Shown in pieces: positions 11,722 through 18,837 of a stretch of 64,000 nt of DNA. The DNA comes from Streptosporangiaceae bacterium (GTDB lineage: Bacteria > Actinomycetota > Actinomycetes > Streptosporangiales > Streptosporangiaceae): NCBI GenBank assembly GCA_050698755.1, contig JBOHCK010000001.1:140-64139 (forward strand), written 5' to 3'. Positions within the stretch are counted from its first letter, which is position 1, and the number at the start of each line of letters is the position of its first letter. The notes under the pieces were generated by a model. It had not been told where the DNA came from and ran no database searches. It saw only the letters and a list, made by a program, of their open reading frames with translations. The position numbers and the translations under genes were made by a program.

Positions 11722-14280
11722 TCACCGGTTGCGCCACCGCGGCGCGCGCTGCTCGCTGAGGGCCTTCATCCCCTCCGCCGCGTCGTCGGTCAGCATCGCC
11801 TGTTCGAGCGCGTCCCCGGTGCTGTTCACCGCCGCGACGGTATCGGCGATGCCCCGGGTGTCGGCCATGATCTGCAGCGCCGAGCGCACCGCGCTCGGGG
11901 ATCCGGCCAGGATCTCGCCGGCCAGTTCCCGCGCTCCGGCGAGCGCGGCGCCCGCCTCGGTGACCCGGTTGACCAGGCCCCACCGGTGCGCCTCGGCCGC
12001 GCCCATCCGCCGCCCGGTCACGATCAGCTCGGTCGCGATCTTCTCCGGTACCGCGCGCGGCAGCCGGACCAGCCCGCCGGCGCCCGGCACCTGGCCGGCC
12101 CGGACCTCGCCCAGCCTGAACGAGGCGGCGGCGTCGGCGACCACCAGGTGGCACGCGAGCGCGATCTCGCACCCGGCGCCTTCGGCCAGGCCGTTCACCG
12201 CGGCGATCACCGGTTTGGGCATCGATGCGCGGCTGGTCAGGCCGGCCTGCCCGTTCAGCGGCACCCAGGCCCGCTGTCCGGTGGCCGCGTAGGCCAGATC
12301 CTGGCCCGCGCAGAACGACTGCTCCCCGGCCCCGGTCAGCGTCGCGCCGGTCAGCGTCGCGCCGGTCAGCGTCGCGCCGGTCAGCGTCGCGCCGGTCAGC
12401 GTCGCACCGGTCAGCGTCGCGCCGGTCAGGACCGCGCCGGTCAGGATCGCGACCCACAGGTCGGGATCGGCGAAGTACGCGTCGAAGATCTCGTCGAGCT
12501 CGTCGTTGGCCGGCGGGTGCAGGGCGTTGCGCACCTCCGGGCGGCTGATCGTGACCTCGAGCAGGTGGCCGTCGCGGCCGACCGTGACGTGCTCGTACTC
12601 CTCGCGCAGCCCGGACCGGCGGGCGGGGAACAGGCTGTCCATCCGCGCCCGGGTGCGGGTGACGTGATTACCGGCGGCGAAGGCCCGCGCGTACACGGCG
12701 GCGCCGAACGGGTCGCCCTCGCCGAGCAGGTCGAGCAGCTCCTCATCGCCGGAGGGAACCGTGGCGACGAAACGCCGGCCACTGCCGTCCAGGTGGCCGC
12801 TGCCCAGGTGGCCGCTGCCCAGGTGGCCGCTGCCCAGGTGGCCGCTGCCCAGGTGGCCGCTGCCGTCCAGGCGGCCGATGACGATGCCGCGGCGGTGGCC
12901 GTCCCGGCCGTGCCTGACGGTGAACGTCTCGATGACCGCCGGCCCGCGCGGGCGGCGGTCGACCTCCACGCGCGGCCGCTCGTCCAGGCTCGCCTGCAGG
13001 GCACCGCTGCGCCCCGGCTGCCACGGCGTCGGCCGGGTGGTGTAGACGCCCGCCGAGTACTTGCCCATGATGCCGCCGTTGGCGCCGACGAAGCCGAAGC
13101 TCCCCGGAGCCTGCCGCGCCCGGTGCAGGGTCTCGACGATGGCGTGCATCGAGTAGTTGTTCCCCGCCCCGCCGAAGTACGGCAGGCCGCCCGTCAGCGT
13201 GAGCCCCCGCGGGTCATCCGCGGCCAGGCCGAACGCGTCGCAGATGTTGAACACCGGGATCGGGAAGCAGCTGTACAAGTCGATGGTGGCGACCTCGGCC
13301 ATGGTGATGCCCGCCAGCTCGAGCGCCAGCTCGCTGGCCCGGGCCGCCGCGGGGCTGCGAGACAGGTCGGGCCGGGTCAACAGCAGCTGCTCGCGCGCGT
13401 CCGCGTGCCCGGCCAGGAACACCCACCGTTCCTCGGGCACGCCGAGCCGCCGGGCGGCCGCGATCGAGGCGAGCACGACCGCCGCGCCCTGGTTGACCTG
13501 ATCGCGGGCCACCAGGTAGCGCGGATAAGGCTCGGCGATGAGGCGGTTAGCCTCGCTCAACGTCACCAGCTCGGCGGCGTCCCTCCTGACCGGCGAGGCG
13601 GCGAACGGGTTGGCCGCCGCGACCTCGGTGAACGGGGCGAACAAGGCGCCCATCCGGGCCGCGTACGCCTCCCGGCTCAGCCCCTCCCGGGCGCGCCGGG
13701 CGTTCTCGAGCAGCGCGTACTGGCTGGGCGCGTCGGTCAGCCCGTGCGCGGCCAGGTGCCGTGAGCCGAGCCCGGCTAGCCCGTAGCCCCGGTCCTCGAG
13801 GCTGCCGCCCACCGTCTCGGTGAAGTCGGGGCGGTCGGCGGCGCCGGCGAAGTGACGCGCGGTCGAGATCGCCTCGGACCCGACGATCAGCGCGACCTGC
13901 GTCTGGCCGGCCGCGATCGACCCGGCCAGCTCGGTGACCAGGTGCTGCGGAGCCTGGCCCCCGCTGACCTCCAGGATGGCCCGGCCGGGCCGGGCTCCGA
14001 TCCGGGCGGCGACGGCTCGCGGGTAGTTGTCGGCGCGGCCCAGGGGAGCCCGGGCGAACGGCGTGGTCGTCTCGAACTGCCGTACCCCGGCGATCGTGTC
14101 CACCGCGGCCGTCAAGGCGGCCAGGTCGGTGCCGCAGTCGGCCAGGGCCGCGTGCGCGGCCTTCGCCGCGAGCCCGACCGCGGACAGCCGCGCATAGTCG
14201 GCCGCGCCCAGCCGGTCGATGGTCTGGCCCCCGCCGATCAGGACGGGAGTCCGCGGGTCAAGCCCGGCCCAGTCGCTCAT
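11722..14280 (-). CDS. thiolase-fold domain fused to a crotonase/enoyl-CoA hydratase domain, with two internal pentapeptide repeat tracts
   Basis: 852 aa. The N-terminal ~440 aa is thiolase-like (DLYSCFPIP..., LTGGLPYFGGAGNNYS). The C-terminal ~300 aa is crotonase (ISRPEVRNAL, FCAGQDL, VNGLAEGAGCEIALACH). (GSGHL)x5 lies in the linker and (LTGAx)x8 in the hydratase domain. Confidence 0.75.
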   Translation of the reverse strand: MSDWAGLDPRTPVLIGGGQTIDRLGAADYARLSAVGLAAKAAHAALADCGTDLAALTAAVDTIAGVRQFETTTPFARAPLGRADNYPRAVAARIGARPGRAILEVSGGQAPQHLVTELAGSIAAGQTQVALIVGSEAISTARHFAGAADRPDFTETVGGSLEDRGYGLAGLGSRHLAAHGLTDAPSQYALLENARRAREGLSREAYAARMGALFAPFTEVAAANPFAASPVRRDAAELVTLSEANRLIAEPYPRYLVARDQVNQGAAVVLASIAAARRLGVPEERWVFLAGHADAREQLLLTRPDLSRSPAAARASELALELAGITMAEVATIDLYSCFPIPVFNICDAFGLAADDPRGLTLTGGLPYFGGAGNNYSMHAIVETLHRARQAPGSFGFVGANGGIMGKYSAGVYTTRPTPWQPGRSGALQASLDERPRVEVDRRPRGPAVIETFTVRHGRDGHRRGIVIGRLDGSGHLGSGHLGSGHLGSGHLGSGHLDGSGRRFVATVPSGDEELLDLLGEGDPFGAAVYARAFAAGNHVTRTRARMDSLFPARRSGLREEYEHVTVGRDGHLLEVTISRPEVRNALHPPANDELDEIFDAYFADPDLWVAILTGAVLTGATLTGATLTGATLTGATLTGATLTGATLTGAGEQSFCAGQDLAYAATGQRAWVPLNGQAGLTSRASMPKPVIAAVNGLAEGAGCEIALACHLVVADAAASFRLGEVRAGQVPGAGGLVRLPRAVPEKIATELIVTGRRMGAAEAHRWGLVNRVTEAGAALAGARELAGEILAGSPSAVRSALQIMADTRGIADTVAAVNSTGDALEQAMLTDDAAEGMKALSEQRAPRWRNR
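12332..12451 (-). repeat. 15-bp in-frame tandem repeat, about 8 copies (ccggtcagcgtcgcg)
   Basis: Six near-identical units plus two diverged units. Encodes LTGAV/LTGAT x8 ending in LTGAG. One unit carries a single G-to-A change. Confidence 0.95.
12789..12863 (-). repeat. 15-bp in-frame tandem repeat, 5 copies (ccaggtggccgctgc)
   Basis: Five perfect copies encoding (GSGHL)x5 between the thiolase-like and hydratase domains. Confidence 0.95.
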
Positions 14281-16666: not shown

Positions 16667-17752
16667 TTACCGCGTCGTTACGGCACGGGGGCCAACGCGA
16701 ACCCGAACCGCGCCGCAGGCACACGACGGATGCGGTGGCCAGGTCCGGCGCCGCCACTGCCAGTCCGGGAGAACCACTTCGAGGGTCCCGTTCACGGTAG
16801 CCGGGACCGCGGTCGCGGGGATCAGCGGGGCCGACCCGGCCTGGTCGATGAACGCCAGGGCCTGCGCGGAGGCCATCGTGGCCGTCATGGCGGCCAGCAC
16901 GGTATCGCAGGCCTGCGGCTGGGCCGGGGCGAAGGTGGCCTGGGCCAGGATCTTAGGCCAGGCCGGATCCCCGTCGGCCTTGCGCATGTCCACGCAGCGC
17001 AGACAGGCCGACCGCCCCGGCCGGACCAGCGGCCCGACCACGCCGATCGCCTCGCTGGCCCAGACGGCCAGATGGGGCACGCGGTCACGCAGGAGGCCCT
17101 CGGTCAGGTCCGGCAGCGCCGGGGCGGTGAGGATCACCAGGTCGGGTACCGCGCCGTCGTCCAGGGTCCTGACGTCGGGGGCTGCCCGCCCGACCGCCCG
17201 GGCGGCGCCCTCCTGCCTCGGCTCGCCCAGGTCCGCCCGGATCAGCCCGGCGGGCGCGAGATCGGCAGGCCGGGCCGCTCCCGAATCGGTGCACGTGACG
17301 TGCCCCACGCCGGAGGCGGCCAGGAAGGTCGCGACGCACGCGCCGGTCCGGCCCGCCCCGTGGATCCTGACGAAGGCGGCCCGGCGGCGCGCCAGGGTGC
17401 GGGCCCCGCCGTCCCCGTCCGCGTACGCCAGCGAGGCGGTCGCGAGTTCCGGGGCCAGGCGCGCCCGCAGTTCGTCGGGGAGGCTGGCGTGCAGCCGGGC
17501 CGGGTAGTCATCGAGCACGCCCGCCGCCGCCAGCACCGCGAGCACGTCGCTGGCCGCCTGCTCGCAAACGCCGTACGTCCCGGCCGTGGCGATGACCGCC
17601 GCGCGATCCCGGCTCCCGTCCAGCAGGCTGATGACGGCCGCGGTCCGGCCGAGCCCGCCAATCGCGACCGCCCGCCGCGGATCCACGCCCACCTGCAGCG
17701 TGTCGCGGTCCCGCCACACCGGCAGCAGCCCCGCCTTCAATGCTGGCCTCAT
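16667..17752 (-). CDS. ThiF/MoeB/E1-like adenylyltransferase-fold protein
   Basis: Likely start is the internal Met at 17752 (MRPALKAGLLPVW...). Rossmann-like VRIHGAGRTGACVATFLAASGVGHVTCTD. CLRC and CAC Cys pairs lie near the C-terminus. Start uncertain (17752, 17776 or 17833). Confidence 0.6.
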   Translation of the reverse strand: MRPALKAGLLPVWRDRDTLQVGVDPRRAVAIGGLGRTAAVISLLDGSRDRAAVIATAGTYGVCEQAASDVLAVLAAAGVLDDYPARLHASLPDELRARLAPELATASLAYADGDGGARTLARRRAAFVRIHGAGRTGACVATFLAASGVGHVTCTDSGAARPADLAPAGLIRADLGEPRQEGAARAVGRAAPDVRTLDDGAVPDLVILTAPALPDLTEGLLRDRVPHLAVWASEAIGVVGPLVRPGRSACLRCVDMRKADGDPAWPKILAQATFAPAQPQACDTVLAAMTATMASAQALAFIDQAGSAPLIPATAVPATVNGTLEVVLPDWQWRRRTWPPHPSCACGAVRVRVGPRAVTTR

Positions 17753-17829
17753 AGCCACATGCTGACACCAAGCCATGACATTCCCGAACGGTGCCCTTCC
17801 GGGAAAGGCCGCGCACACCCCTTGACGAC

Positions 17830-17863
17830 GCATCTATCAAAGTGATATCACTTTGATAGATGC
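17830..17863. promoter_or_regulatory. perfect 34-bp AT-rich palindrome, probable operator
   Basis: GCATCTATCAAAGTGATATCACTTTGATAGATGC equals its own reverse complement. It lies between the divergent ThiF-like gene and a small membrane-protein gene, with TTGACG immediately upstream at about 17822. Confidence 0.7.
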
Positions 17864-17901
17864 TCGGACGGCCGGGCACCACAAGTACAGAGGAGAATCC
17901 G

Positions 17902-18144
17902 ATGCGAAACATGTATGCGCACCCCACTTACGCGCCCCCTGGGATCATGAAGGTCATCCCGTTCTGGGAGTACCGCTACCCGAGGACCTTCATCGGCATG
18001 GGCGCGACCGGTGCTGCCTTGTGCGTCATCGCGGGCGCCATTCTGATGGCCGTGGGGTACTACCCCTGGGGAGTCGCGCTGTTCGCGGCGGCGGCACTGC
18101 GCAGCTGGATCGCGTACCAGCTCGTGCAGTTCGTCCACAGCTAG
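17902..18144 (+). CDS. small membrane protein (two predicted TM helices)
   Basis: ATG at 17902 is preceded by GAGGAG. 80 aa with two hydrophobic stretches (FIGMGATGAALCVIAGAILMAV, WGVALFAAAAL). No family recognised. Confidence 0.5.
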   Translation: MRNMYAHPTYAPPGIMKVIPFWEYRYPRTFIGMGATGAALCVIAGAILMAVGYYPWGVALFAAAALRSWIAYQLVQFVHS

Positions 18145-18372
18145 CCTTCGGACGGGCCGCCAGGCCACCAGTCGATCCGGGGTCCGGCCGTCTCTAACAA
18201 GTCCCCCGACGGCCCCGCCCGATCGCAACCTCTAGCCCGCCGGCCTACGCCGGCGGGCTTTCGGCGGCCAGGGGCACTCCCAAGTCCCGGCGACCACCGG
18301 GTAACACGCGGGCGGTCCGAGAACACTGACAGGTGGAACCCATTACCGCGCCTGACGCTTCCGGAGGACCCC

Positions 18373-18837
18373 ATGACCACCGTCCGCATCGCGCACGCCG
18401 AGCCCAGGCCAGGAAAGCTGAGCACCGGGGGATTCTCGACCAAGGGTTTCCTGGTCGTGCTCGCCGACGACGTCGGCCACCGGGCGGTGCCGATCTGGAT
18501 GACCAGCGAGCCAGGAGGAGGCGACCTGTCGGAGCTCCTCGGGTCCGCCCACGAGATCGTGACGGCCAGCGCTCCGCAGGAACTCACCGCCCGGCTGCTG
18601 CACGCGGTCAACGCCACCGTGACCGGCGTGGACATCGACATGACCACCGCGGACGCGACGGAGTTGACCCCGCAAGCCACCGTCGCGCGGATCGGGCTCA
18701 GCGGTCCCGCGGGAACCCGGCAGGTCACGGCGGCCCTCGGCCTGGGCCTCGCCATGGCGGCCGCCGCGGATGCCCCGGTCCGGCTGCCCGACGCAGTGCT
18801 GGATCGCCTGGCCGCGCGCCGTGCTCGCCGACCCTGA
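18373..18837 (+). CDS. bifunctional-nuclease (BFN/DUF151) domain protein, possibly frameshifted at the 3' end
   Basis: 154 aa. FLVVLADDVGHRAVPIWMTSEPGG resembles the BFN core (LLL.E..g.R.LPIWIG). The downstream +1-frame ORF 18770-18994 overlaps its 3' end. Confidence 0.5.
   Translation: MTTVRIAHAEPRPGKLSTGGFSTKGFLVVLADDVGHRAVPIWMTSEPGGGDLSELLGSAHEIVTASAPQELTARLLHAVNATVTGVDIDMTTADATELTPQATVARIGLSGPAGTRQVTAALGLGLAMAAAADAPVRLPDAVLDRLAARRARRP

Follow-up and report, generated by a model that had tools for sequence, protein, structure and literature searches.

A perfect 34-bp palindrome in front of a small membrane protein gene of a Streptosporangiaceae bacterium has at its center a motif that recurs in about ten bacterial phyla, and, judging from sequence, we consider it very probably the operator of a transcription factor that controls an SPFH-linked regulon. 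The operator reading is supported because the element is conserved among orthologues, is present in a single copy, and contains a cross-phylum motif that is linked in cis to a gene encoding an Arc-like ribbon-helix-helix (RHH) protein. Somewhat less assuredly, we take this Arc-like protein to be the likely binder of the palindrome. The two would form a cross-phylum operator class that is tied to an Arc-like RHH family and to SPFH genes and that is, in kind, a classical repressor-operator pair. No description of this operator class was found in Rfam, Pfam, NCBIfam, or the searchable literature.

The palindrome and its neighbors in the window

The window, by which we mean the whole stretch of 64,000 nucleotides that was analyzed, has the following features around the palindrome.

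16667-17752, minus strand: ThiF-family gene (PF00899, E 1e-13), the neighbor on the left
17749-17781, minus strand: 10-codon upstream ORF MSWLGVSMWL*, between the palindrome and the ThiF-like gene; its TGA overlaps the ThiF start as ATGA
17822-17827, plus strand: -35-like TTGACG, 7 nt before the 24-bp core
17830-17846 and 17847-17863, unstranded: the two palindrome arms, 100% complementary
17835-17858, unstranded: conserved 24-bp core TATCAAAGTGATATCACTTTGATA, the proposed operator; the same in L001, L005, L006, L131, L132, and L136
17838-17855, unstranded: 18-mer CAAAGTGATATCACTTTG, the query of the genome-wide scan
17864-17876, plus strand: short GC-rich inverted repeat (T/C)CGG-N4-6-CCGG just past the palindrome; recurs at this distance in most actinomycete sites, whatever the downstream gene
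17890-17895, plus strand: ribosome-binding site (RBS) GAGGAG, read from the sequence; related sites have AGGAG(G) at an equal distance
17902-18144, plus strand: gene for an 80-aa protein with two transmembrane (TM) segments and a PFWEYRYP motif, behind GAGGAG

The palindrome itself (17830-17863, GCATCTATCAAAGTGATATCACTTTGATAGATGC) consists of two 17-nt arms without a spacer. As the initial annotation had stated, it is self-complementary over all 34 nt, has a G+C content of about 35% (12 of 34), and is built of nested TATCA-N3-TGATA units around a central GATATC. Its length is also beyond chance, as had been claimed: none of 100 dinucleotide shuffles of the window gave a match with up to 3 mismatches allowed. 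Around the palindrome, the local G+C content (100-nt windows) dips to 0.55, compared to 0.70 to 0.80 in the flanks. The palindrome has no second copy in the 64-kb window, and neither its 22-bp core nor the degenerate pattern ATCA-N3-TGATATCA-N3-TGAT occurs there a second time.

The 24-bp core can be laid out as T-ATCA-AAG-TGAT-ATCA-CTT-TGAT-A, with four tetramer boxes that make up two 11-bp inverted-repeat units (ATCA-AAG-TGAT at 17836-17846 and ATCA-CTT-TGAT at 17847-17857). The centers of the two units are 11 bp apart, which is one helical turn. The resulting pattern of two ATCA-N3-TGAT elements at one-turn spacing (17836-17857) is also kept in the consensus of the 63 SPFH loci described below (TatCAAAGTGATATCACTTTGATA).

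The description of the surroundings by the initial annotation was accurate as well. TTGACG is found just upstream of the palindrome, the small two-TM gene on the right begins at 17902, and no regulator gene, let alone an obvious cognate one, lies next to the palindrome. For the ThiF-like gene, a start between 17752 and 17833 had been given; the ORF can indeed begin at 17833, but conservation favors 17752. The small two-TM gene, whose 80-aa product belongs to no Pfam or NCBIfam family, is likely the regulated gene. Its RBS is located about 30 nt beyond the end of the 24-bp core. We infer that the GC-rich inverted repeat between the palindrome and the RBS is probably the 5′ end of the mRNA leader.

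A consensus scan of positions 17600 to 18400 detected no full sigma-70 promoter, no canonical -10 element, and no terminator, and there is no T-tract. Two other promoter arrangements, TTGACG paired with a -10 element beyond the palindrome and the -35-like TTGATA of the right arm, were considered and rejected, as both lack a plausible -10 element at 16 to 19 nt. Given that TTGAC is situated 6 to 7 nt upstream of the core, the -10 element and the transcription start are expected inside the palindrome.

Three further observations concern genes of the window. The frame and length of the upstream ORF MSWLGVSMWL are kept in L001, L004, L005, L006, L132, and L136, and the L131 version is one codon shorter; possible roles of this ORF are that of a leader peptide or that of an element for translational coupling in the ThiF-ABC1 operon. 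On the other side of the palindrome, the ORF at 18373-18837 has a junction at about 18814, where approximately 1.95 kb is absent in comparison to positions 6940-8888 of L001, the closest relative. At this junction, the 5′ part of a 331-aa gene is fused to the 3′ end of a 525-aa gene with Sigma70_r2/r4 and BFN_dom domains, resulting in a 154-aa chimeric ORF. The two parental genes have a common paralogous segment (66% nucleotide identity), which could have mediated the deletion. Finally, the 852-aa ORF at 11722-14280 on the minus strand, a TLP1_add_C/enoyl-CoA hydratase fusion, has two peptides repeated in tandem and in frame (GSGHL about 5 times and TGATL about 8 times), and its orthologues are shorter (791 to 803 aa).

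Conservation of the core at orthologous loci and in distant genomes

Besides the window's own copy, the small protein has 22 homologues, with all sources listed as JGI or ENA only. The order of genes common to their contigs is the ECH-fusion gene, methyltransferase, ABC1 kinase, ThiF, and the small gene. The initial annotation had suggested looking for the element upstream of orthologues, and the palindrome is present at the same place in seven of the nine distinct intergenic regions. In these seven versions (the window, L001/L002/L003, L005, L006, L131, L132, and L136), the palindrome comes after cTTGAC, and a 26-bp core, CTATCAAAGTGATATCACTTTGATAG, is identical in all of them. The small proteins encoded in L001/L002, L005, L006, L131, L132, and L136 are 63 to 84% identical to that of the window. 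A ThiF homologue of Nonomuraea gerenzanensis has neither the palindrome nor the small gene upstream; at an identity of only 42%, its locus was dropped as an orthologous comparison.

The remaining two regions lack the palindrome. In L004, both genes and TTGACG are kept, and the palindrome plus about 3 nt is cleanly absent. Since L004 has the small gene without the palindrome, the site is dispensable. In L133 to L135, a deletion has removed about 19 codons of the small gene together with its RBS, the palindrome, and the TTGAC hexamer, and the rest of the gene is fused to upstream sequence. The small gene is probably decaying in this lineage.

Such presence-absence polymorphism, in which L004 is without the palindrome and about 3 nt and L133 to L135 are without it and the 5′ end of the gene, would fit a small mobile or dispersed repeat (REP-like, MITE-like, or like a transposon footprint) that was inserted by chance, and so would the presence of an AT-rich element in a GC-rich genome. 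We regard this explanation as very improbable. There is one copy in the 64-kb window, no second copy with up to 4 mismatches in the high-G+C loci checked, and one detected site in the Nonomuraea record; the element always keeps a constant, promoter-proximal distance to the start of a gene; and the same core occurs from Bacillota to Cyanobacteria. A transposon footprint in particular was rejected, with no target-site duplication visible and a copy number of one. The initial annotation had associated a repeat of this type with absence from orthologous regions and many dispersed copies elsewhere; the opposite is seen, with a single-copy element kept in most orthologous regions.

A wider genome search places the motif far beyond this locus. 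We scanned one genome per species (596 Gb) for the central 18-mer CAAAGTGATATCACTTTG and found it in at least 119 genomic loci/genomes from about ten phyla. By our own estimate, chance would account for approximately 9 matches if the 596 Gb had an equal base composition and for about 60-fold fewer at 70% G+C. Among the matches listed, 110 distinct sites are in loci with a G+C content of at least 0.55. The carriers are Actinomycetota, Alpha-, Beta-, and Gammaproteobacteria, Myxococcota, Acidobacteriota, Gemmatimonas, Opitutaceae, Deinococcus, Acaryochloris, and Thermoactinomycetaceae. A few low-G+C matches (Methanolobus, Vibrio, Finegoldia, and Nitrososphaera) look like chance. More than 120 loci were checked for a second, degenerate site (up to 4 mismatches), and the high-G+C ones among them have none.

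The position of the motif relative to promoter elements is similar across carriers. TTGAC(A/G/C) lies 6 to 7 nt before the 24-mer in most of 27 actinomycete sites and 3 to 15 nt before it in other phyla; in two Thermoactinomycetaceae loci (L107 and L119), TATAAT abuts the palindrome. The RBS follows 2 to 40 nt downstream of the site. In the 11.85-Mb record of Nonomuraea gerenzanensis, one site (AAAAAAGTGATATCACTTTGCTAG) was detected by BLAST, and it is upstream of an SPFH-RHH pair. The variant in Deinococcus sp. NW-56 is GTATCGATGTGATATCATCTTGATAC. An actinomycete SPFH-RHH operon (L126, 4000-4027) has, in place of the palindrome, two GATATC sequences 22 bp apart in an AT-rich stretch, possibly an operator variant of the array type.

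In soil Actinomycetota (Streptosporangiaceae, Trebonia, and Microflora Danica MAGs), these parts form a module composed of cTTGACr, a 6- to 7-nt gap, the 24-mer, a CCGG..CCGG hairpin, AGGAGG, and ATG, with 53 to 57 bp between the center of the palindrome and the ATG. The module precedes the SPFH-RHH operon in L012, L039, L046, L050, L115, and L117; in L037, L038, and L125, it precedes a YbjQ_1 gene that has a gene for a small TM protein behind it. It is also found ahead of three subfamilies of small two-TM proteins with a (P/S)WEY motif, including that of the window. Two loci (L073 and L127) have the RHH gene directly upstream of the palindrome and a small WEY-motif gene. In both of them, SPFH is cut down to a C-terminal remnant before the intact RHH gene (L073, 2256-2393; L127, 4703-4987), from which it follows that the regulator can outlive its partner gene. 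Across loci, the left neighbor of the palindrome changes, and the right-hand gene (small membrane protein, SPFH, or YbjQ) is the constant partner.

SPFH genes, the Arc-like protein family, and the proposed repression

To describe the gene neighborhood of the motif, we took every ORF located up to 3.5 kb from the palindrome in more than 120 loci and clustered these ORFs. Among the matches listed, 72 loci have an SPFH/Band_7 gene (about 290 aa; PF01145, E 1e-23) just downstream of the motif. In the 63 of these loci where the gene start could be placed, the SPFH gene starts within about 200 bp, and mostly less than 60 bp, of the palindrome center. In 70 of the 72 loci, an HMM search detected a small RHH gene (60 to 100 aa) downstream of the SPFH gene. 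As for the two exceptions, the L052 locus stops just past the SPFH gene, and the L043 locus extends only about 400 bp beyond it.

The small proteins have the consensus K-x-F-L-L-R-L-D-P...L..WA..ELRS.NAQIEFLLR.AL. A profile of 23 diverse members aligns to P22 Arc over the full length (pArc 1u9p, E 4e-6; 9pio, 1nla, and 1arq, E 2-3e-3). Single members give subthreshold matches to Pfam RHH_5, Arc, ParD, and FitA, so that the Arc match is significant at the profile level only. The family has no Pfam family of its own, no NCBIfam match, and no precomputed Pfam domain on any member, and its at least 8000 members (clusters) are called “hypothetical protein” where a name is given. In Deinococcus sp. 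NW-56, for example, PGAP labels the pair “SPFH domain-containing protein” and “hypothetical protein.” An AlphaFold2 model of the RHH monomer (pLDDT 72) has helices only and is confident only for these helices, and a Foldseek search of the PDB with it returned no match. Because the RHH protein would be an obligate dimer, both the monomer model and the Foldseek result are uninformative.

Two features of the Arc-like proteins may be relevant to the recognition of DNA. Actinomycete members (L012, L073, L126, and L127) have an invariant C-terminal MRPRGRP after the RHH domain, which most proteobacterial members lack. The RGRP core of this tail resembles an AT-hook, and such a tail would suit an AT-rich site in a genome of 70% G+C. 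Moreover, the outer triplet of the operator tends to vary with residues of the N-terminal RHH strand, a trend that phylogeny confounds: TAT occurs with KK[SA]FLLR, CAT/TGT/TTT with RKPFLLR, and TAG with RK.[VL]LLR.

Alternatively, the palindrome could be the operator of another, unlinked regulator, such as one of the TetR family, with the RHH protein having a different role. The absence of an adjacent regulator from the window and a TetR-like ORF about 1.1 kb from the motif in L104 are compatible with this possibility, and the TATCA..TGATA half-sites are ones that we take to resemble tetO. Yet the clustered neighborhoods of more than 120 loci show no second regulator family that recurs beside the motif, as opposed to the RHH gene with its near-constant presence in SPFH loci, and the box spacing of N3 and the two fused units are unlike tetO. 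Of the hallmarks of a TetR/tetO system, an adjacent TetR gene did not emerge as recurrent from the clustering, and the spacing differs from that of a 15-bp palindrome with a 1-nt center. We conclude that another regulator is unlikely, and that the site is not a member of the tetO class: despite its similar half-sites, it has a 3-nt rather than a 1-nt spacer, two fused units, and no linked TetR.

Under the preferred reading, the 24-bp core at 17835-17858 would be the binding site of a small repressor of the Arc family, whose gene, in most carriers of the motif, is directly downstream of an SPFH/Band_7 gene with the same palindrome in its promoter. This connection between the RHH protein and the motif is drawn from gene neighborhood and is, to that extent, putative. 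As a rule, RHH dimers occupy regularly spaced boxes in a cooperative manner; no fewer than two neighboring dimers are required, and they touch each other through their helical scaffolds (PMC3413123). We propose that the two 11-bp units would be occupied by two or more RHH dimers, lined up next to each other along a single face of the double helix. With the site bound, the -10 element and the transcription start would be covered, an arrangement that corresponds to repression by occlusion, and RNA polymerase would be blocked. We infer from the sequence that the protein binds and represses, in which oligomeric state it does so, and where transcription starts.

In the window, the operator would be placed before the small two-TM gene at 17902-18144. 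Neither an SPFH-type gene nor an Arc-like (RHH) gene was detected anywhere in the 64-kb window (tblastn and HMM searches), and regulation here would therefore act in trans. We assume that the repressor is encoded elsewhere in the genome, and the small gene would then be a trans-regulated member of an SPFH/small-membrane-protein regulon. The initial annotation had read the palindrome as an operator bound with high affinity by a dimeric or tetrameric regulator of one or both divergent genes. Its operator part is probably right, and a candidate regulator has now been found, but control of both genes is not supported, because the constant partner of the motif is the right-hand gene and not the ThiF-like gene.

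Among the known systems that come closest is P22 Arc, whose operator has two subsites one helical turn apart. The profile of the linked regulator aligns with Arc over its full length, and the operator described here is likewise a short palindrome with two subsites one helical turn apart, on which two cooperative dimers would be expected (PMC3413123). The Arc-like regulator is probably autoregulated, because its gene lies in the operon that it would control. Unlike P22 Arc, the regulator is chromosomal rather than of phage or plasmid origin, linked to SPFH, and, in actinomycetes, equipped with the RGRP tail. The operator sequence is also unrelated to that of Arc, its core is identical across about ten phyla, and the protein reaches no Pfam or NCBIfam cutoff.

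Similarities extend to ParG, CopG, the omega protein of pSM19035, and MetJ, which also use regularly spaced boxes, as do the tetramers ATCA/TGAT here and the GATATC that recurs at 22 bp in L126. The omega heptad WATCACW is, we assume, similar to the central TATCACT. However, the order and spacing of the boxes differ from those of the four systems, which control plasmid copy number, partition, or methionine genes, whereas the targets here would be membrane proteins. By analogy only, the operator can also be compared to the SoxR, NrdR, and LexA boxes. These are near-invariant palindromes upstream of small, coherent sets of genes and are recognizable across distant phyla; the regulator family and the targets are different.

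If this interpretation is correct, a single 24-bp sequence marks a previously undescribed regulon in at least 10 phyla (Actinomycetota, Pseudomonadota, Myxococcota, Acidobacteriota, Gemmatimonadota, Verrucomicrobiota, Deinococcota, Cyanobacteria, Bacillota, and others). At least 8000 “hypothetical” proteins of 60 to 100 aa would gain a function as autoregulated Arc-like repressors of SPFH (stomatin/flotillin-like) genes. To our knowledge, the regulation and role of bacterial SPFH proteins are poorly understood, and a conserved repressor-operator pair would make SPFH regulation directly testable. It would also offer a portable, very tight operator for synthetic biology. We suggest that it is worth following up an operator so widespread and so invariant, whose putative regulators form such a large unannotated family and whose arms evolve in concert.

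Two sets of searches returned no earlier account of the element. Searched against Rfam, the window region and six loci with the motif gave no family, the sole match (Scr2736, E 0.84) being a chance one located elsewhere. Full-text literature searches with AAGTGATATCACTT, with TGATATCA plus ribbon-helix-helix, with GTGATATCAC, and with SPFH/stomatin plus ribbon-helix-helix returned nothing relevant.

Covariation of the outer arms

Conservation of the sequence covers about 24 to 26 bp only, and the arms outside this core covary. At positions 14 and 15 from the center the orthologues differ, and five different, perfectly compensated variants exist among the seven loci, as follows (left/right arm ends).

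Window: GCATCT / AGATGC
L001: GCTACT / AGTAGC
L006 and L131: GCCACT / AGTGGC
L132: GCACCT / AGGTGC, in a 40-bp palindrome that reaches into the TTGAC hexamer
L136: GCGCCT / AGGCGC

L005 is the sole imperfect palindrome among the seven. Arm length among the orthologues ranges from 14 to 21 nt, and the perfect palindrome extends up to 40 to 42 bp. In 31 actinomycete sites, the covariation score is 0.218 versus 0.096 in shuffled data, a value that none of 500 shuffles reached, and slid controls remain at or below 0.09. The signal is confined to positions 13 to 17 from the center, and positions 14 and 15 each have four types of Watson-Crick pairs. The inner 9 to 12 pairs are invariant, and so is the would-be loop. 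Across the 110 high-G+C sites, pairing declines from 52 to 63% at positions 13 and 14 to 45% at position 15, 36% at position 16, and a background of about 30% beyond.

Covarying arms are not predicted by a pure operator with a fixed-sequence reader. Given that the sequence is kept over about 24 to 26 bp only and that the arms covary, perfection over 34 bp would not be a requirement of the protein. The complementarity of the outer arms suggests either homogenization of the arms by template switching or selection for a hairpin.

Selection for pairing would be expected if the palindrome functioned as a nucleic acid structure, either an RNA hairpin in the 5′ leader (for stability, processing, or as an insulating terminator) or a DNA cruciform. 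The compensated variants and the covariation score are in line with such a function, as is the stable fold of the palindrome, which as single-stranded DNA has a folding energy of −17.4 kcal/mol (z = −6.0 versus shuffles). The inner 18 to 24 bp are nevertheless invariant across phyla, including the would-be loop GATATC, which a hairpin would not need. The start of transcription is probably inside the right arm, in which case the full hairpin would not be transcribed, and this makes an RNA hairpin less likely. There is also neither a T-tract nor an Rfam family, and the gradual decay of pairing and the varying arm lengths fit a mutational process better than a defined structure. Overall, we find a structural role for the palindrome improbable.

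The gradual decay of pairing and the variable arm length favor a mutational explanation for the arms of the proposed operator. According to three papers, hairpin-templated template switching corrects quasipalindromes, evens out the arms of inverted repeats, and can make compensated stem changes in one step (PMC7202029, PMC8604942, and PMC8794818). We propose that this process, by keeping the two arms identical, probably produces the perfect pairing beyond the core as a side effect.

In a more speculative combination of both ideas, which we consider a rather slim possibility, the operator would double as a structure switch. The covarying arms would be selected for a cruciform or hairpin driven by changes in supercoiling, which would evict or trap the Arc-like repressor; expression of a pan-bacterial, hitherto undescribed regulon of small membrane proteins and SPFH proteins would thereby respond to envelope or osmotic stress. 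The series of orthologues with compensated arms is, in addition, a clean natural case for how long perfect palindromes stay perfect.
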